A model generated the notes under the pieces. The model saw only the letters and a program-made list of their open reading frames with translations, searched no databases and was not told where the DNA came from. From NCBI GenBank assembly GCA_043799405.1, contig JAZDNT010000003.1, positions 399,461 to 463,460 on the forward strand: 64,000 nt of DNA, in the 5' to 3' direction. Positions 40,308 to 59,631 of the stretch are shown here, piece by piece (position 1 is the stretch's first letter; every line of letters begins with the position of its first letter). The position numbers and the translations under genes are program-made. The DNA is from Candidatus Kerfeldbacteria bacterium (lineage in GTDB: Bacteria; Patescibacteriota; Patescibacteriia; SBBC01).

Positions 40308-40480
40308 ATATCTCCTATTAATCCGTCGCGACCGAAGCGGCGAGGATCAACGAAGGGAAAGTCGCCGACGCGCCAACGCGCTGTGGCGACGGCGCGAGTG
40401 GTATCGCCTGCCCGCCGTACAAAGGACCTTTGTACTTTGGCAGGCGGGGACGAGGAAACTGTAGGTGTCCTCGCCGAACA

Positions 40481-42436
40481 TCATAGGATCTGGTACGTAC
40501 CTTCCTGGTACGCCCATGAAGCGCCGGGACCTGACGAGAACCAGACGCTCGAGAGCCCGGACTCATAGGTGATGATCGCATTGTTCTCAAGGTACAGCTT
40601 CTGAGCTGTAACCTCCTTCATTTCCCCGTTCTGGCTTACTTTCGCGACGCCCTTCGGCGCATAGACGACGGCGGCTGCGTTCGGATTAATGCTCGGCTTC
40701 GAGAAATTGTTGCCGATGTCGAAGGCGGCGACGGTCGGATCGAGGCTTGCGCTCATCGCGATCCCCATAATGAACGTTCCCGCAGTCGAGTTATGCAGGA
40801 ACATGGAATCGTTCTGTGCTATGATACGCCCGCTCGTCACTTTCGTACTCTCATCTTCCGGATTGTCGGCAATTATAACCCCGCTCTTGGATCCGTACGC
40901 GTCCGAGAGCGCAAGATTCGCACCATTGATCAGGGTGATATTCCCTTTGACCCAGACTGCCCCGGCAAGCGTTACGGTGTTAGAGATCGTTACGTCTCCA
41001 ATGTACTTTCTCGATCCGATGCTGCCGCCGGTAATGTTGCACGGATCCGGGCTGCCGCCGCACGGGATCGGTTCTCCGGCATCCTCTGCCGCCTGTTCCC
41101 ACACTGCGATCTGCTGGTCGGAAATTGGGAACACGACCGGCTCGGGATCGGTGCTACCAGGAACCATATCGATGTCAATACAGTATAGGGTGTTATCACC
41201 ATTGTCGCATTGTTCCGTACCGCCATTTGCATTAACATTACCGCTCGTGACGTTCCGGTAGTACGCCTTTTTTCCTATGCTGGCTTTTGTCATGGTATAT
41301 GCGCGCGCATCGCCGCCGATCGTTTCTATTTCTAACGTCGGTTGAACGCCTCCCATCCATACCTGAAACGCTACATCGCACGCCGGAGAAGAGCAGAGTT
41401 CCGCGACCGATGCGAGCGGGTTGCCGGTCATTGCCGTATTATTAGCATATGCCGTATCGGTCGTTGACCTGACCATTGAAAAGTAATTGCTGCCGTTTGC
41501 TCCGCTTACTTGTAAGACCAGCCAGTATCTCACTCCGGAAGAGAGGAGGGTCTGTGGAGTAAATGCGAAATCTTTATAAGCATCCTGCCATCCTGGGTCG
41601 GTGATTAGCGGAAGTGATGACGCGTTAATAGGTATCTGCGCTCCTGAAACCATCATTCCTGGTATACCACTGCCGTTATCATAGTAGATGGAAAGAGTGG
41701 GGTTCGCGGGGGCAGAGCTTGTACGCGCCATCTTCAAGCTCACCTTCGTCACCTTATCGACGGTCGTCGGTTTGAAACTCTGAACAACGTACCGAGTGGA
41801 GGTTGATCCGCGTACATCGAAGGTTGTGTAGGAAGCGGCAGGGTCCGTCTCGGCTTCGATTACGGAATCGCTAATTGACAGGATCGCGTCCCCCGAAATT
41901 TCAGTACCGCTGCCGCTCCCAGTCGCGATACTGATAGGCCCGGCAACGTACACGTTCCCGGGAGTACCGCCTGCGCCGAGGATTTTTGCACCGTTGTTGA
42001 ACACGATGCCGCCGGTTCCTGACTGAACACCGTAGACGAACGAGGCGTGTTCGCTGTTAGTAGAAAGCCGTACCTGTATCTGTTTTGAAAGTGACTGACC
42101 CCTAAACGTCGTTGTTCCTGTTGCTGTTATGATCCTATTGATGCTGTCCCAGCTGACAGAGAATTTTCCCTGACCGAATGACGTATCGGTCTCCCCAGAG
42201 TAGTTCGATGGGTTACCCTGGCAATCCGATGTGTTCATCGGGTTGTTCAGGCACCACACCGCTTTCTCTATTCCCGCCTCGGCGATCTGGATAGTATTCT
42301 GCTCACTGGTGCGTTTTCCGCTCGCCGATGTGTTGGTCTGGGTATAATCAAAGATTGCGATCGTGATGATGAGCACGACGCTCGTGAAGATGAGCACAAA
42401 TGCGAGGCTGTTACCGCGGTAACGTTCTTTATTCAT
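40481..42436 (-). CDS. Large pilus-associated protein (PilX-like N-terminus, minor pilin or tip candidate)
   Basis: 651 aa. N-terminal RGNSLAFVLIFTSVVLIITIAIF hydrophobic helix without Glu+5, then a G/S/T-rich beta-rich region. ATGA overlap with the upstream pseudopilin gene. Confidence 0.6.
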   Translation of the reverse strand: MNKERYRGNSLAFVLIFTSVVLIITIAIFDYTQTNTSASGKRTSEQNTIQIAEAGIEKAVWCLNNPMNTSDCQGNPSNYSGETDTSFGQGKFSVSWDSINRIITATGTTTFRGQSLSKQIQVRLSTNSEHASFVYGVQSGTGGIVFNNGAKILGAGGTPGNVYVAGPISIATGSGSGTEISGDAILSISDSVIEAETDPAASYTTFDVRGSTSTRYVVQSFKPTTVDKVTKVSLKMARTSSAPANPTLSIYYDNGSGIPGMMVSGAQIPINASSLPLITDPGWQDAYKDFAFTPQTLLSSGVRYWLVLQVSGANGSNYFSMVRSTTDTAYANNTAMTGNPLASVAELCSSPACDVAFQVWMGGVQPTLEIETIGGDARAYTMTKASIGKKAYYRNVTSGNVNANGGTEQCDNGDNTLYCIDIDMVPGSTDPEPVVFPISDQQIAVWEQAAEDAGEPIPCGGSPDPCNITGGSIGSRKYIGDVTISNTVTLAGAVWVKGNITLINGANLALSDAYGSKSGVIIADNPEDESTKVTSGRIIAQNDSMFLHNSTAGTFIMGIAMSASLDPTVAAFDIGNNFSKPSINPNAAAVVYAPKGVAKVSQNGEMKEVTAQKLYLENNAIITYESGLSSVWFSSGPGASWAYQEGTYQIL

Positions 42437-49692: not shown

Positions 49693-50145
49693 TTAATTGC
49701 GTATATCCCTGTTCCGTAGCGCGACCCCGCTTAGTACAAACAACAACGCGACGTACGTTACGATAAGCCACGGCATGGAAAGCCAGTCCCACCATCCATG
49801 AACCGTGAATCTTGATACAGGCCAGAGCAACGGTGTCAAAAGTTCCCGGTGTCCTGGGATATCGATGAGAATATGCACAGCCCACGGCCACGTCACCATA
49901 TACACGCGGCGAAAGTACAGCATCGCGAACAGTGTCACCGCAGCCCACACGATGAGACTGTGGGATATATCATAGAGCGGTAGGGAGAAGCGGATGCGCC
50001 CTTCTGTTACCAGCCAGAACGTCGTTGCAGGAAGCCAGATGAGGTCGGGTAGAATACCAAATAACACGAGCCACTTCCAGTGATGCGGCGTTTTTTTCGC
50101 GCTGGCTATCACATACGTGACAAGCCCATGTGCAAGGATATCCAT
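49693..50145 (-). CDS. Membrane-bound metal-dependent hydrolase (YdjM/DUF457-like)
   Basis: 150 aa. MDILAHGL N-terminus, conserved His residues (SHS, HILIDIPGH) and 4 TM segments. Confidence 0.55.
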   Translation of the reverse strand: MDILAHGLVTYVIASAKKTPHHWKWLVLFGILPDLIWLPATTFWLVTEGRIRFSLPLYDISHSLIVWAAVTLFAMLYFRRVYMVTWPWAVHILIDIPGHRELLTPLLWPVSRFTVHGWWDWLSMPWLIVTYVALLFVLSGVALRNRDIRN

Positions 50146-50278
50146 ACCGTCGTTACTGCCAGGTCCGGCTCTGCCGGAAACCTCTTAATACGACCTCGCC
50201 TGCCTTCGCCGTAGCGAAGCTCCGGCTTCGCGCAGGCAGGTCATTATCAGCTCCGCCTAGCACCAGAACGGGCATTAT

Positions 50279-50661
50279 TGGAAGACATGTGAGGGATCGA
50301 ACCTCCGACCTCGTCATTACCTGCCCGCCGTACGGAGTTATCTTATCAAACGTCCTTTTGGTGGGCGATCCAGGACTCGAACCTGGGACCTCGTCATTAT
50401 CAGTGACGCGCTCTAACCATCTGAGCTAATCGCCCACCAAAAGGAAACTTGATATAAATTCTATTATTTATCCAGTTGTAACGTTCTGCAAACACTCCGT
50501 ACTCCGGTCACCGCTTTCTGCGGGATCCCGCCAGAGGCGGTGACAGGCGGGTCAGTGACCCCGCACAACTCGCTATCGCTCGTTTGCGGGGCAGGCGCGC
50601 TTCCTTCATCTAACCACCTGCCTGCCCGCCACAGTGGAGCGACGGCGGGAGCTACATGCCC
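50279..50661 (-). pseudogene. tRNA-Ile-like shell whose anticodon loop is interrupted by an insert that contains the intact tRNA-Ile
   Basis: The 5' part is GGGCATG TA GCTC [29-nt hairpin insert] AGGTGGTTA GATG ... GGTCA CTGA | CCCGCC.... The 3' part is ...GGCGGGCAGG | TAA TGACG AGGTC GGAGG TTCGATC CCTCA CATGTCT T CCA. The acceptor pairs 7/7 with two G-T wobbles. CTGATAA is restored when the insert is removed. The D stem is broken. Confidence 0.5.
50359..50435 (-). tRNA. tRNA-Ile (anticodon GAT), CCA encoded
   Basis: The minus strand reads GGGCGAT TA GCTC AGATGGTTA GAGC G CGTCA CTGATAA TGACG AGGTC CCAGG TTCGAGT CCTGG ATCGCCC A CCA. The cloverleaf is canonical. Confidence 0.9.
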
Positions 50662-50821
50662 ACCATCTGCCGACCTTCAATTTTCAAATTACTGCCCAAC
50701 CGACAGCGTGTCTAGGGTAACAAATTGTCCGTCCCAACACAACCCTTCCGGCAACGCGAGCGGCGTACCTTGCGTCGGTTCCTGGATTCTGGTATACTCA
50801 CGCTTTCGTTTTGATGATTGT

Positions 50822-52579
50822 ATGAAACCCGTCACACGAGACACGTTCAAGCTGTACTATCAGCACTCCATGCGGCACCGCGGCGTCATGTTCCTTGTGC
50901 TAGGAGGTGTCATCGGCGGTGTAACAGTCAGCACCGCCATTCCCTACTTCTACAAGGTGTTCTTTGACGTGCTCACAAAAAGCGGTGCTAAAAGCGCTCT
51001 CGGACACGACCTGGTGCACATTATTCTCATTATCCTTGCGCTGAACGGCGTCGGTTGGATGTTCTGGCGTATCGCGACGTTCGCGGTCAACCGCTATCAG
51101 CCGAGAGTCATGGCCGACCTGTACAACTCATCGTTCGAGTACCTCCACGGCCACTCGGTGAGCTTCTTCCTGAACCGCTTCGTCGGATCCATCGTCCGGA
51201 AGGTCGGACGCATGGTGCGCACCTTCGAGAGCATCTCCGATCGCCTGATGTTCAATCTGCTCCCGCTCGCGATCCGTATCCTTATCATCGTCGGCGTCCT
51301 TGCGATCTGGCGTCCGGTGCTCGGCCTCATCCTTGCGGTCTGGACAGCGATCTACCTGACCGCAAGCTACTACTTCGCGTTGTACAAGCTCCAGTTCGAC
51401 GTAAAGGCCGCTGCTATCGATTCCAAGGCGACCGGCTACCTCGCCGACACCATCACGAATAATACGAACGTCAAGCTCTTCACCTCAAAGCTTGCCGAGC
51501 TCGCTGGTTTCATGAAACTGACGGACAAGCAGCGCCGCCTCCATACCTTCTCCTGGGACCTCGCTGCGTACATGGAGGCGTTCCAAGGTGGGTTCATGGC
51601 CATCCTTGAGTTCACGGTGTTCTTCTTCGCCATCCGGCTCTGGCAGGCCGGCACGTTCTCCGTCGGCGATTTCGTCCTTATCCAGACCTACCTCATCCAG
51701 CTCATGTCAAACCTGTGGGAAGTGTCCCGCATCATCCAACGCCTGTACCAGGACCTCGCGGAGGCGGAGGAGATGATCGAGATCCTGAACGAAACGCATG
51801 AGGTCGTCGACAAACCGGGCGCGAAGGAACTCGTCGTCCGGGAAGGCAGGATCGTTTTCGATCGCGTCTCCTTCATGTACAACCAGACGCGCGAGGTCGT
51901 GCACCGCCTCTCGCTAAATGTCGCACCGGGCGAACGGATCGGCATCGTCGGTCCCTCAGGCGCCGGCAAGACGACGATCATCGGGCTCCTGTTCCGGTTC
52001 TTCGACGTTGCCAGCGGACATATTACCATTGACAGCCAGGACATTGCTGACGTGACGCAGGATTCCCTGCGGAGGCAGACCGCGTTCGTGCCGCAGGACC
52101 CGATACTGTTCCACCGGACCATCATGGAAAATATCCGTTACGGCCGGCCAGACGCGACCGACAAAGAGGTCATCGCTGCGGCGCGCGACGCCCACTGCGA
52201 TGAGTTTATTAGCCAATTCCCGGATGGATACTACACCTACGTCGGCGAACGCGGCGTGAAGCTCTCCGGCGGCGAGCGCCAGCGCGTCGCCATTGCGCGG
52301 GCCATTCTCAAAAGCGCCCCTATACTGGTGCTGGACGAAGCGACAAGCAGTTTGGACTCGCACGTCGAAGCGCTGATTCAGGACGCGCTTACAAGGCTCA
52401 TGCAAGGAAAAACAACTATTGTTATTGCCCACCGTCTTTCAACGGTCAACAAGATGGACCGCATCATAGTACTCGACCACGGCCACGTGACCGAAACCGG
52501 AACGCACAAAGAACTCCTCGCGAAAAGCAGCGGATTGTACAAGAAGCTCTGGAAGCTCCAGGCCGGCGGGTTCATCTGA
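50822..52579 (+). CDS. ABC transporter, fused permease/ATPase (MsbA/lipid-exporter-like)
   Basis: Six-TM N-terminal domain. Walker A GPSGAGKTT, signature LSGGERQRVAIARA, Walker B ILVLDEATSSLD and H-loop IAHRLST are seen. The start is at MKPVTRD. The track start at 50540 reads through the tRNA-like region and is rejected. Confidence 0.9.
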   Translation: MKPVTRDTFKLYYQHSMRHRGVMFLVLGGVIGGVTVSTAIPYFYKVFFDVLTKSGAKSALGHDLVHIILIILALNGVGWMFWRIATFAVNRYQPRVMADLYNSSFEYLHGHSVSFFLNRFVGSIVRKVGRMVRTFESISDRLMFNLLPLAIRILIIVGVLAIWRPVLGLILAVWTAIYLTASYYFALYKLQFDVKAAAIDSKATGYLADTITNNTNVKLFTSKLAELAGFMKLTDKQRRLHTFSWDLAAYMEAFQGGFMAILEFTVFFFAIRLWQAGTFSVGDFVLIQTYLIQLMSNLWEVSRIIQRLYQDLAEAEEMIEILNETHEVVDKPGAKELVVREGRIVFDRVSFMYNQTREVVHRLSLNVAPGERIGIVGPSGAGKTTIIGLLFRFFDVASGHITIDSQDIADVTQDSLRRQTAFVPQDPILFHRTIMENIRYGRPDATDKEVIAAARDAHCDEFISQFPDGYYTYVGERGVKLSGGERQRVAIARAILKSAPILVLDEATSSLDSHVEALIQDALTRLMQGKTTIVIAHRLSTVNKMDRIIVLDHGHVTETGTHKELLAKSSGLYKKLWKLQAGGFI

Positions 52580-56917: not shown

Positions 56918-57472
56918 AGGATTTCCCGAGGAGAAGAACACGACCTCTAGGTTCACGCAGAAAGTACACAATCTGCGCTGAACTCGAAACGACTAGCCCG
57001 AAGGCGAGTCGCTTCAGGTCTCCCTAGAAAGGAGGTGATCCATCGACAGCTTCCGCTACCGATGCCTTGTTACGACTTAGCCCCTATCATCGAGCCTACC
57101 TTGGTTCCCCGTACGGGGCATTTCAGGTATTCCCGACTCTCTTGGCTTGACGGGCGGTGTGTACAAAGCCCGAGAACGTATTCACCGCACCATGGCTGAT
57201 GCGCGGTTACTAGCGATTCCAGCTTCATGAGGGCGAGTTGCAGCCCTCAATCCGAACTGAGGGGTGGTTTGGTGGGATTGGCTCCGCCTTACGGCTTCGC
57301 AGCCCATTGTTACACCCCATTGTAGCACGTGTGTAGCCCAGGTCGTCAGAGGACCATGCTGACTTGACGTCATCCCTTCCTTCCTCACGCTTAAAGCGTG
57401 CAGTCTCGAGCGAATATTTTAACACTCGACAGGGGTTGCGCTCGTTAGGGGACTTAACCCAACAGCTCACGC

Positions 57473-57503
<31 letters not shown>

Positions 57504-57619
57504 TCAGCACCCTCGAAGGCTTCCCTAGTTTCCTAGGGCGTGCAGCTGAATTTCTAGACCTGGTAAGGTTCCTCGCTTAGCGTCGAATTGAACCACATGC
57601 TCCACCGCTTGTGCGGGCT

Positions 57620-57668
<49 letters not shown>

Positions 57669-57773
57669 GATGCTTATCGCGTTAGCTGACGATACTGCGA
57701 GGGTCGATACTCGCAACATCTAGCATCCATCGTTTACAGCGTGGACTACTGGGGTATCTACACGATTGTTACT

Positions 57774-57850
57774 TTCGGCGAGGAAACCTGAACGGTTTCC
57801 TCGTCCGATACCACTCCTTCCCTTTCATGGTGTCGATCCTTGCGCCTCGG
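57774..57850 (-). repeat. Module C (copy 2), at the 3' end of the 16S insertion
   Basis: TTCGGCGAGGAAACCTGAACGGTTTCCTCGTCCGATACCACTCCTTCCCT...CCTCGG matches about 46 of the first 50 positions of module D. It ends 13 nt inside the insertion. Confidence 0.8.
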
Positions 57851-58486
57851 CTAGGGTCCCGCCCTTCGGGCACCCTGATCCTCGGCGCTGCGGACTCGAC
57901 GTTCCATTTTGTCCCCTCCTCATGTGAGGAGGGGTGTCCGGTCGAATGACCGGACGGGGTGGTCGTGGTATGGACGCATCATTTCTGTGCGTCTCTGCAT
58001 GTCGCCATGCAGGTCAGACTATATCTTTCACCCGAAGGGTGACTCGGCGTATAGTCGTTGAGGGGTTTAGTGCTCATCCAGTCGTTAGAAAGGTTAGGGT
58101 GAGGGTCGATGGATTCTATAGTTTATACACGCCGCTAACCCGTAGGCGTGTCACGCCCCGCAGTTTCCAGGCACGCGTTTTCGTGTCCCGCCTTAACAGA
58201 TCACGAAGCTGTTTTTCGACCCCCACCCACTTCTAAAGACCAAAAGAGCACTAAACTTCCCTGCGGGTTGTCTGCACCGAATGATTTTTACTGTTGCCAG
58301 TACATTCGGATACTCAGAGTTTCCCGCAAATAGCCAAGTTTATTTATTCTCGCCTTGCGACGAGAGAGGACATGAGGCTTTTTCTCTCCCTTCGATCGTA
58401 CCCCTACGATCTTTCAATCAATCACATCGCGAACGTGAATTTACTTCACGTGAGCGATACAACTGAAGGGAAGGGGGAGCATCAAC

Positions 58487-58565
58487 CCAGCACCATTTCT
58501 GCCTCCGACAAAACTCACAAACGATTTCCCATCGTCGAAGTTTTCAGAAGTAGAAATGATGCTGG
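58487..58565 (-). repeat. Module B (copy 2), at the 5' end of the 16S insertion
   Basis: It has the same 13-nt start, CCAGCACCATTTC. The other arm, CGTCGAAGTTTTCAGAAGTAGAAATGATGCTGG, matches about 28/33 against module A. It begins 12 nt inside the insertion. Confidence 0.8.
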
Positions 58566-59291
58566 GAGAATTGCTTTATCCCATTCGCTCCCCACGCTTT
58601 CGTTCGTTGAGTGTCAGGATCGTTCCAGCACACTGCCTTCGCTATTGGTGTTCTTGCCGATATTAACGCATTTTACCGCTACACCGGCAATTCCGTGTGC
58701 CTCTCCCGTCCTCGAGTTCCGTCGTATCACCTGCGGCCTCACGGTTGAGCCGTGAGATTTAACAGGAGACGTGCGGAACCACCGTTGAACGCTTTACGCC
58801 CAATAAATCCGGATAACGCTCGGGGCCTTCGTATTACCGCTGCTGCTGGCACGAAGTTAGCAGCCCCTTATTCCTTCGGTACACTCAGTGTTGTTCCCGA
58901 AGAAAAGCAGTTTACACCCCGAAGGGCTTCTTCCTGCACGCGGCGTCGCTCCCTCAGACTTTCGTCCATTGGGGAAGATTCTCGACTGCAGCCTCCCGTA
59001 GGAGTCTGGGCAGTGTCGCAGTCCCAGTGAGGCGGGTCGTGCTCTCACACCCGCTATCCGTCATAGCCTTGGTAGGCCATTACCCTACCAACAAGCTGAT
59101 GGACCATAGGCCCCTCCCAAGGTGGCTTGCGCCTTTACTCCCGTTCCATATGGATCGGGACATCATCCGGAATTAGCCCGTCTTTCGACGAGTTATACCG
59201 AGCCTCGGGGTAGGTTACCAATGTGTTACGCACCCGTTTGCCACTCATACCTGTATTGCTACAGATCTTCGTTCGACTTGCATGCCTAAGA

Positions 59292-59331
<40 letters not shown>

Positions 59332-59631
59332 ATAAATGACGCGTATGGGTTTGGCTCCCCATACACCGCGATTCGATTGTTGGGATGGACGAATCGCTTA
59401 AGCACCTAGAATTTGACGTTTATCCCGTGTTTGACACGGGATCTTGTGACGGACCGTCGGAGAACAGAGAGGGGAGCCGGTACCGAAAGAGCAAAAGTTA
59501 AGTCGCTCTGGACCTTTGATCTCTACCCTCGGTTCTCCGGCGATCGCGTCGTTTGCTTGCTTGTCCAGCACCGAACAGAGTTCTGGTGCTGGGTTCCTTA
59601 CCGCATTTCAGTTGTCAACGTACCGGATCGA

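Follow-up and report, generated by a model that had tools for sequence, protein, structure and literature searches.

Transfer RNA genes are standard integration targets of mobile DNA, and a regenerated gene together with a displaced fragment marks the ends of the inserted islands (PMC4383910, PMC9897764). In Patescibacteria, group I introns occur in tRNA anticodon loops, including the position between nucleotides 35 and 36 (PMC13011429), and among small palindromic repeats those of the REP/RAYT type carry a GTAG or CGTC tag at one end of a 20–40 nt palindrome (PMC3733652). The locus described in this study resembles each of these systems in part, as it does the disrupted tRNA genes of archaea and the gene cassettes of integrons, and differs from all of them. 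It is found in a metagenome-assembled genome (MAG) of Candidatus Kerfeldbacteria, a member of the candidate phyla radiation (CPR), in a 64-kb stretch, referred to as the window, of a 495-kb contig. On the minus strand of the window, positions 50160–50661 are best read as three tRNA-Ile(GAU) genes that succeeded one another and are now stacked, of which the innermost alone is alive. Mobile DNA that disrupts and restores a tRNA gene is known, and the vehicle encountered here has a substantial chance of belonging to a new class of element. Full-text literature searches, including searches by element sequence, retrieved no description of nested tRNA genes or of these palindromes.

The innermost gene is part of a 232-nt cassette located in the anticodon loop of an older, interrupted tRNA-Ile gene, termed the shell, and remnants of a third gene follow downstream. 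The ends of the inserts belong to two GC-clamped palindrome families, H-CAGG (CCCGCC...GGCGGGCAGG) and E (TCCCGC...GCGGGA, doubled). The components of the locus are the following:

50661–50552, minus strand: 5' half of the shell (nt 1–35), four pieces parted by three inserts, assigned by ARAGORN on the spliced sequence and by spliced alignment
50661–50649, minus strand: shell piece GGGCATGTAGCTC, read from the sequence
50648–50620, minus strand: 29-nt insert in the D arm of the shell, an empty H-CAGG copy with the element register CCCGCC-13 nt-GGCGGG-CAGG at 50649–50621
50619–50609, minus strand: shell piece AGGTGGTTAGA
50608–50601, minus strand: 8-nt insert TGAAGGAA at the D loop/stem of the shell, no hairpin
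50600–50596, minus strand: shell piece GCGCG
50595–50559, minus strand: 37-nt hairpin insert CCTG-CCCCGCA...TGCGGGG (CCTGCCCCGC...TGCGGGG) in the anticodon stem of the shell (28/29), a flipped H-CAGG copy
50558–50552, minus strand: shell piece TCACTGA
50551–50320, minus strand: 232-nt cassette between anticodon-loop nucleotides 35 and 36 of the shell, with the ends CCCGCC...GGCGGG+CAGG
50551–50507, minus strand: E-like double hairpin inside the cassette
50505–50494 and 50338–50330, minus strand: inverted repeat GGAGTACGGAGT / ACTCCGTAC inside the cassette, from an inverted-repeat scan
50492–50463, minus strand: promoter-like site TTTGCA-18-AATAAT in the cassette, 28 nt upstream of the inner tRNA, a consensus match only
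50444–50436, minus strand: leader CCTTTTGGT, complementary to discriminator, CCA and trailer ACCAAAAGG (50362–50354)
50435–50359, minus strand: intact tRNA-Ile(GAT) with encoded CCA (ARAGORN; Rfam tRNA, 73 bits, E = 8.7e-16)
50319–50279, minus strand: 3' half of the shell (nt 36–76), TAATGACGAGGTCGGAGGTTCGATCCCTCACATGTCTTCCA, which reads TAATGACG AGGTC GGAGG TTCGATC CCTCA CATGTCT T CCA
50250–50164, minus strand: remnant of a third, older tRNA-Ile layer, ending at the start codon of the open reading frame (ORF) 49693–50145
50250–50241, minus strand: third-layer piece CTGATAATGA
50240–50199, minus strand: 42-nt hairpin of the third layer
50198–50192, minus strand: third-layer piece CGAGGTC

The relationship between the layers is illustrated by the removal of the four inserts from 50661–50279, which leaves an exact 77-nt cloverleaf that is recognised by ARAGORN, run on the five joined shell pieces, as tRNA-Ile(GAT). 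At the 35|36 split the shell reads GTCACTGA before and TAATGACG after the cassette, and the two halves carry the acceptor strands GGGCATG and CATGTCT, which pair in all seven positions, including G1:T72 and G3:T70; a shell-type tRNA-Ile lacking the interruption would read ...GTCACTGATAATGACGAGGTCGGAGGTTCGATCCCTC... in this region. The shell resumes exactly, with neither a target duplication nor a common core at the junctions CTGA|CCCGCC and CAGG|TAAT. Spliced alignment of the intact tRNA-Ile to the sequence on either side of it, in which the gene was masked, yields z = 6.8 and 7.5 relative to shuffled flanks. In the third layer, a T-arm trace, AGAGGTT[TCCGGCAGAGCCGGA]CCTGG, was read by eye and is tentative, and the hairpin folds of this layer score z = -3.4 and -4.8.

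These results support an initial annotation of the locus, which had described an Ile-like shell whose anticodon loop holds an intact tRNA-Ile, noted the pairing acceptor strands of this shell and listed Ile-derived fragments with a 42-nt hairpin further downstream: all of the shell elements it described are present on the minus strand at the positions it gave, as are the downstream fragments (50250–50192). It had also proposed a check by covariance models, where Rfam detects the intact gene, and the tRNA identity of the shell comes from ARAGORN after splicing. Of the four places at which the shell is interrupted, two had been recognised and two overlooked, namely the 8-nt insert and the 37-nt hairpin, the latter of which folds as DNA with -11 kcal/mol (z = -4.8). 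The 29-nt insert had been called a hairpin, and while its CCCGCC...GGCGGG ends are present and the end GGCGGGCAGG is exact, its fold as DNA is not significant (z = -1.0). It is thus the exception among seven small hairpins from the three tRNA loci of the window and positions 40405–40448, the other six of which fold significantly as DNA (z between -3.1 and -5.2).

The shell is not a recent copy of the gene it surrounds. Both are identical in 61 of 77 positions, with a single base difference across positions 8–49, and the acceptor pairs 5:69, 6:68 and 7:67 as well as the T-stem pair 51:65 are changed on both sides with retention of pairing. Since four stem pairs are compensated in this manner, the halves, which are about 330 nt apart, stem from one tRNA-Ile gene that is distinct from the inner one. 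The acceptor stem of the inner gene is likewise self-consistent and pairs with neither half of the shell. Besides its three further inserts, the shell carries a G3:T70 pair, a T in place of A as discriminator base (position 73) and a G49:A65 mismatch at the base of the T stem. In the rules that govern tRNA identity, G3:U70 is the determinant of alanyl-tRNA synthetase (AlaRS) and A73 is usual in bacterial tRNA-Ile; under these rules G3:T70 and T73 would turn a spliced shell into a poor or harmful tRNA. As judged from its sequence, the shell is therefore probably a dead older gene, whereas the inner tRNA-Ile is presumed to be the working one.

The cassette that carries the inner gene combines several features that recur elsewhere in the window. 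Pairing of leader and trailer lengthens the acceptor stem of the inner tRNA-Ile by 10 bp, and the equivalent extensions comprise 12 bp in the inner tRNA-Phe and 11 bp in the inner tRNA-Pro. The cassette end CGTACGGCGGGCAGG is also found in the hairpin at 40405–40448 and, flipped, at the end of the cassette surrounding tRNA-Phe, and the left part of the Ile cassette shares the arrangement CCCGCCT...GCGGGATCCCGC with an insert in the anticodon loop of the Phe shell. The backbone of the Ile cassette in addition includes CCGGAGTACGGAGTGTTTGCAGAACG.

Layering is not confined to tRNA-Ile but extends to all three tRNAs of the window. The relevant features of the other two loci and of a related solitary hairpin are:

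37593–37331, minus strand: three-layer tRNA-Pro locus
37491–37417, minus strand: intact tRNA-Pro(TGG), inside the clamp TCCCGC-TCCAGT...ACTGGA-GCGGGA (ARAGORN)
37551–35 (5' part) and 37406–37377 (3' part), minus strand: layer A of the Pro locus, with its own leader and trailer
37593–79 (5' part, tentative) and 37363–31 (3' part), minus strand: layer C of the Pro locus, a more decayed outer layer with its own matched leader and trailer
39736–39396, minus strand: two-layer tRNA-Phe locus
39515–39441, minus strand: intact tRNA-Phe(GAA), in a 187-nt cassette (39600–39414) with the ends CCTG-CCCCGTACGCGAGG...CCTCGCGTTACGGGG, which form 14-nt inverted ends
40448–40405, minus strand: solitary empty H-CAGG hairpin CCCCGCCTGCC...GTACGGCGGGCAGG, intergenic and directly after the stop codon of ORF 40481–42436 (DNA fold -15.7 kcal/mol, z = -5.2)

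The Phe cassette interrupts an older tRNA-Phe at T-loop position 58/59. This older gene is split with neither overlap nor gap and is further interrupted by a 56-nt E element in its anticodon loop (39703–39648) and by two 12-nt inserts. After splicing, this shell is identified by ARAGORN as tRNA-Phe(GAA), with spliced-alignment values of z = 11.9 and 10.1. In the Pro locus the acceptor stems are matched within each layer (CGGGGTA/TACCCCG in the older gene and CGGGGTG/CACCCCG in its counterpart), as are leader and trailer (CCACAG/CTGTGG and CCAG/CTGG, respectively), so that the differences are compensated layer by layer. The spliced-alignment statistic is not significant in this case (z about 0.6–1.1) because the Pro shells lack the middle of the gene, and the assignment of the Pro layers rests on direct reading. 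In an inverted-repeat scan of the window, hairpins of the type CCCGC..GCGGG were found nearly exclusively within the three tRNA loci, the exceptions being a 6-bp match with 229-nt spacing near 1447–1675, the solitary hairpin at 40405–40448 and one match in an intron of the 16S rRNA gene. Exact copies of GGCGGGCAGG occur three times in the window and those of GCGGGATCCCGC twice.

Comparable nests are present in other contigs, to which we refer by locus number. The clearest of them is L151, where an E element interrupts an otherwise complete older tRNA-Leu(TAG) at T-loop position 56|57, and where the live tRNA-Leu(TAG), whose acceptor stem is different and self-consistent, occupies the loop of the second hairpin of this element. 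L235 has a live tRNA-Thr(TGT) within a shell tRNA-Thr, on a cassette whose CCTGCCCGCC...GGCAGGCGGGG ends are of the same family as those in the window, and in L005, from Doudnabacteria, an intact tRNA-Thr(CGT) interrupts the anticodon loop of its tRNA-Thr(CGT) shell (spliced alignment z = 15). In each of these three contigs, palindromes of the two families surround the live tRNA, and the older gene around it has the same anticodon. L155, L166, L167, L180 and L185 are layered loci as well, with three layers in L155, and in at least 11 of 50 testable metagenome loci the live gene is preceded by an upstream 5' fragment of the same tRNA. In L166, a 33-nt direct repeat (AGGACA-hairpin-CGACAxCGGT) surrounds the live tRNA-Glu and its spacers, which is unlike the exact split observed in the window and looks like a long target duplication or the footprint of recombination.

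The distribution of the E family in public sequences provides a broader view of these palindromes. E is a double hairpin of about 32 nt with the organisation T-CCCGCC-loop-GGCGGG-AT-CCCGC-loop-GCGGG-A, which combines constant 6-bp clamps with interiors of 4–30 nt and a co-varying seventh pair and which is found in both orientations relative to the tRNA; among the clamped elements in general, the interior ranges from 4 nt up to a whole tRNA gene. A scan of genomes for CCCGCCT-N-GCGGGATCCCGC, with one genome per species, returned the matches listed as L001–L120, at least about 55 of which are in low-GC genomes, with those in GC-rich genomes resembling chance hits in coding DNA. The low-GC hosts among these listed matches include members of the candidate phyla radiation, Omnitrophota, WOR-3, Margulisiibacteriota, Ignavibacteria, Bacteroidota and Planctomycetes. 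Most of the listed genomic copies are not near tRNAs and several are located within tRNA debris, as in L004, where a tRNA-Leu precedes a 3' duplicate whose T loop contains E, in L108 from another member of the Kerfeldbacteria, where the 3' duplicate following a tRNA-Glu has three hairpins in its T loop, and in L067, which contains a truncated tRNA-Asp with three hairpins and a shell devoid of the 3' acceptor strand.

A second scan covered metagenomes and was directed at E placed after GTTC, and the following figures refer to the 120 non-identical matches listed (L129–L248). Almost half of these T-loop copies (57 of 120) are positioned within 80 nt downstream of an intact tRNA on the same strand, with 28 anticodons represented, and in most of the 57 the flank following E repeats positions 57–73 of the neighbouring tRNA. 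The E-bearing tRNA copies of the metagenomes are pseudo-genes, in which the 5' acceptor strand is gone and the anticodon arm is often swapped for a 16–17-nt hairpin (such as TCCCGAT-NNN-ATCGGGA). Removal of E restores a tRNA in two of the 120 cases, once in the loaded nest L151 and once in a dead tandem copy beside a live gene, and in none of the 120 is E the sole defect of a sole tRNA copy. With respect to its insertion sites, E favours TTC|RAA, the palindromic centre of the T loop, with a loose T-K-T / A-M-A flank, and the sites of inserts in general are mostly loops of the cloverleaf or borders between loop and stem. A long target duplication was considered for the T-loop fragments and rejected, as GGTTC recurs directly left of E, and so was an association of E with phages, where seven of eight matches in a viral scan were chance hits in a GC-rich phage gene. 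No Rfam family was assigned to E in 17 E-bearing loci searched, and an all-against-all BLAST of the ORFs of 57 E-bearing loci revealed neither a protein family that travels with E nor a recurrent transposase.

Several side observations concern the surroundings of these elements. ORFs that by eye resemble four-helix-bundle proteins of the type found in 23S rRNA intervening sequences (about 110–130 residues from stop to stop) are present in L003, L024, L073, L095, L112 and L120; the one in L073 abuts E, whereas the spacing is inconsistent in the other loci. E often has short AT-rich heptamer repeats at its flanks or is located at the tip of a longer AT-rich palindrome (for example in L072, L070 and L129). 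In pseudo-tRNA copies of L183 (1600–1720), L222, L172 and L166, the 17-nt anticodon arm is swapped for a GC hairpin of equal length (TCCCGAT-NNN-ATCGGGA or CCCCGCCATCGGCGGGG), in some cases in tandem units. In L120 (2464–2670), the spacer between tRNA-Met and tRNA-Leu is a 13-bp TCC...GGA hairpin (TCCCGTTAGAAGC/GCTTCTAACGGGA), and the tRNA-Gln of the same locus has the leader/trailer stems GCCAAAGC/GCTTTGGC and CCCCGCC/GGCGGGG.

With known palindromic repeats, such as REP/BIME sequences, miniature inverted-repeat transposable elements (MITEs) of the PATE type derived from IS200/IS605, the palindromic elements of Rickettsia and the GC clusters of mitochondria, the elements described here share a short, GC-rich and multicopy hairpin structure, the occurrence in both orientations, the lack of target duplication and, for some families, a location inside genes. 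They differ in their constant 6-bp clamps, in an interior that is able to hold a whole tRNA gene and in the concentration of the copies of the window in dead tRNA genes with no conserved flank. The GTAG or CGTC tag of REP/RAYT sequences is absent, and the elements instead start with (T)CCCGC or CCTGCC. Hairpins and missing duplications would fit PATE, but the feet of the hairpins are at the very ends, where they form a terminal inverted repeat, and in place of a fixed 5' target, the left flanks of H-CAGG read AGCT, CTGA, TCGT, GTGA and AGAA. Terminal inverted repeats are also characteristic of classical MITEs, whereas no target duplication is found at any Ile or Phe junction. Integron gene cassettes similarly have conserved hairpin-forming ends around variable cargo; in contrast, the GTTRRRY R box is lacking here, the units are nested rather than in tandem, their cargo is a tRNA and their target a tRNA loop.

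We propose, with a probability of roughly 60%, that hairpin-bounded tRNA cassettes replace the resident gene by inserting into its loops, and that the dead shell subsequently gathers more hairpins. In case of tRNA-Ile, insertion is favoured because the older gene is cut at one point with neither loss nor repeat, because the inner gene is complete and of a different allele and because the ends of the cassette are of a family type that also occurs empty. The 232-bp cassette, whose ends form hairpins and which includes a promoter-like site of its own, would have delivered the live gene and would have entered between nucleotides 35 and 36 of the previous resident tRNA-Ile, leaving no target duplication. 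The loss of a presumably single-copy, essential gene would be survivable by means of the incoming working copy of the same tRNA. The dead shell might then have drifted, acquiring G3:T70, G1:T72, T73 and A65, and, as a neutral and structurally preferred target, might have taken up two empty hairpins of the same family and the 8-nt insert. An earlier round would have left the outermost fragment at 50250–50164, with repeated rounds giving rise to layered stacks. A hit on a presumably single-copy tRNA would be lethal if no rescue copy were supplied, which would account for nests that share the same anticodon, for intact genes that are free of hairpins and for dead shells that are rich in them. Folded single-stranded DNA or a cruciform may serve as the recognised target, as suggested by the location of the sites mostly in loops or at loop/stem borders and by the TTC|RAA centre preferred by E. 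What the sequences demonstrate is the anatomy of the locus, the exact division of the shell, the consistency of each layer as a separate allele, element ends common to different loci and genomes, the recurrence of nested live tRNAs in unrelated contigs and the lack of a ribozyme, bulge-helix-bulge or recombinase signature. The mobility of the DNA, insertion and rescue in a single step, the order of events, the targeting of loops in folded single-stranded DNA and the existence of an enzyme are in this proposal what we infer from the arrangement of the loci.

Several points weigh against this proposal. Neither an enzyme, nor a polymorphism between empty and filled sites, nor a copy of a cassette in a second context was found, and mobility is deduced solely from anatomy. 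In the 11 ORFs that were scanned in the flanks of the three tRNA loci, no integrase, transposase or recombinase domain was detected. The five copies of H-CAGG have no conserved flank, target motif or target duplication in common, and a metagenome scan for the leader and 5' end of the Pro cassette yielded 0 matches. The cassettes of L166 and L180 are not visibly bounded by hairpins, and several metagenome loci have 5' and 3' fragments that show no difference from the live gene and that either overlap or are separated by gaps, as would fit a local partial duplication equally well. Finally, the single-copy status of tRNA-Ile(GAU) is presumed, with the survey for layering covering the 64-kb window.

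The recurrence of the arrangement in the window and in many uncultivated bacteria nevertheless suggests that essential tRNA genes are replaced in a way not described so far. As a more far-reaching interpretation, which we regard as conceivable rather than probable, the elements may constitute an undescribed class of tiny non-coding mobile cassettes with GC-clamp ends (TCCCGC/GCGGGA and CCCGCC/GGCGGGCAGG), which would home to tRNA loops, mostly at TTC|RAA, and bring along a replacement gene of the same anticodon. Such a 'kill-and-rescue' strategy would be addictive, would lead to a horizontal replacement of tRNAs across phyla and would leave a time-ordered fossil stack.

If the proposed replacement is correct, the essential and presumably single-copy tRNA genes of reduced genomes would be turned over by a foreign copy inserted into the old one, on a route that is distinct from both duplication followed by loss and the integration of islands. 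The layers would offer an ordered and datable series of tRNA alleles at a single locus, and the hairpin clamps would imply an insertion activity whose targeting depends on structure or on the T loop, which is of interest with respect to mobile elements and possibly as a tool. For the debate on split tRNAs, the loci illustrate that bacterial tRNA genes can be cut at many non-canonical positions in the absence of a splicing system, as mere relics. Layered loci also affect annotation and the quality checks of MAGs, since they give rise to spurious extensions of ORFs, such as the start at 50540 of an ABC transporter, and to misleading tRNA-like fragments.

Among the alternatives, we have considered that the stacks are the debris of classical integrase-mediated integration, where islands or prophages would have inserted repeatedly at the anticodon or T loop and would later have been deleted, leaving att-like fragments and palindromes. 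The likeness to islands and prophages that target tRNAs, as described for tyrosine integrases and Islander-type elements, is considerable, since in both cases the anticodon or T loop serves as target, the incoming tRNA sequence maintains supply and fragments accumulate beside the live gene (PMC4383910, PMC9897764). The 3' fragments begin in the anticodon loop (50319 and 50250) or the T loop, the fragment following E in metagenome loci often matches the 3' tail of the live tRNA in 17 of 17 positions, in the manner of an att repeat, and tandem units are found in L236 and L183. Yet integration would be expected to result in one hybrid gene and a one-sided fragment, whereas the cassette brings a whole tRNA gene, with the old 5' half upstream and the old 3' half downstream, and the self-consistent acceptor stem of the inner gene speaks against a hybrid. 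The split is located exactly at 35|36 with no duplicated att core at CTGA| and |TAAT, and the junction logic of tyrosine and serine recombinases was rejected, as neither a core nor a dinucleotide occurs at both junctions. Moreover, the element is only about 0.2 kb long (232 bp) and has inverted-repeat ends, with no integrase in the flanking ORFs scanned. Neither a hybrid tRNA with a displaced direct-repeat copy nor an integrase with island DNA between repeats is thus found at the Ile locus, and we consider this explanation unlikely.

Replication slippage or template switching on the palindrome formed by leader, acceptor stem and trailer might alternatively have led to local partial duplication, followed by decay and by colonisation with hairpins, in which case no foreign cassette would be involved. 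Such a process would be compatible with upstream 5' fragments that equal the live gene, as in L166 (29/29), L167 (24/24) and L180 (22/22), with metagenome fragments that overlap or leave gaps instead of abutting, and with the leaders of layers A and B of the Pro locus, which are near-identical direct repeats. It is difficult to reconcile with the layers of the Ile, Phe and Pro loci and of L151 and L005, which are different alleles with compensated stem differences, with the division of the Ile and Phe shells that shows neither overlap nor gap, and with the ends of the inserts, copies of a family of elements that is also found alone. Duplication as the origin of the stacks hence appears improbable.

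The third alternative assumes that the shell is a working disrupted tRNA, where the inserts would be excised from the transcript, the shell religated to a second tRNA-Ile and the inner tRNA freed from its 'intron'. It is this reading that would be implied by the term exon-like, which the initial annotation had used for the two halves, and the halves do join to a tRNA: excision of the four inserts results in a cloverleaf of perfect length, the whole transcript folds as a nested cloverleaf (dG = -180.8 kcal/mol, z = -6.9), the inserts are found mostly at loops or loop/stem borders and 35/36 is also a site of group I introns in tRNAs of Patescibacteria (PMC13011429). Several short hairpin-like inserts, pieces that join to a perfect cloverleaf and GC-rich leader/trailer stems are in addition reminiscent of the disrupted tRNAs of archaea, with their non-canonical bulge-helix-bulge (BHB) introns and their split and permuted genes. 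Splicing of the shell is not borne out by its other properties. The 16S rRNA of the window is bacterial, and the minimum free energy fold places a 4-nt bulge (G|UAA), a 3-bp helix (CUG/CAG) and a 1-nt bulge next to the large insert, an arrangement that is not the 3-4-3 geometry of a BHB motif, with the 29-nt insert being devoid of an outer helix. A functional spliced product with intact identity elements, which defines tRNAs with BHB introns, is not what the shell would provide, as G3:T70 would make the product a substrate of AlaRS, T73 replaces the usual A73 and the T stem is mismatched. In further contrast to the archaeal genes, a complete copy is contained inside, and shells elsewhere are truncated, as in case of the Pro shell, which lacks the anticodon arm, and of the 3' acceptor strand missing in L067. 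That E was never the sole defect of a sole tRNA copy in the 120 listed cases also argues against a working shell. With respect to group I introns, which share the phylum-level group and the anticodon-loop site, the 232-nt insert consists mostly of a tRNA gene and palindromes, and an Rfam cmscan of 49800–51000 at E <= 10 returned tRNA and two chance matches but no group I core, although the same library finds the intron in the 16S rRNA gene. We thus regard a functional shell as very improbable.

An assembly artefact, in which the metagenome assembler would have merged strain variants of a single tRNA locus, is suggested by the origin of the sequence from a MAG and by layers that are allelic variants of one gene, but is very unlikely in light of the same ordered, hairpin-punctuated nesting at three loci of one 495-kb contig, of the recurrence of this architecture in many other projects, both in their MAGs and in their metagenome contigs, and of junctions that coincide with the ends of elements and not with repeats internal to the tRNA.

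Outside the tRNA genes, the layering has left its mark on the adjacent ABC-transporter ORF, whose start at 50540 had already been suspected to be spurious. The suspicion is supported by the domain assignment in the 679-residue ORF, where the Pfam match to ABC_membrane does not begin before residue 121 and that to ABC_tran begins at residue 455. The first approximately 94 residues of the ORF (50540–50821, plus strand) match nothing and overlap with the shell on the opposite strand, and the true start is likely the methionine at about 50822 (MKPVTRD).

A search of the whole window against Rfam identified no family besides tRNA, 16S rRNA and the group I intron of the latter. The 16S rRNA gene (57028–59337, minus strand) spans 2310 nt, with about 850 nt of additional sequence between model positions of approximately 720 and 750, which includes the group I intron at 57995–58425 (62.7 bits), and insertions of this kind have been described in rRNA genes of CPR bacteria (PMC11270868). 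The region of the 515F primer in this gene reads CAGCAGCAGCGG. A neighbouring gene encodes a trehalase, whose nearest relative is only 52% identical.

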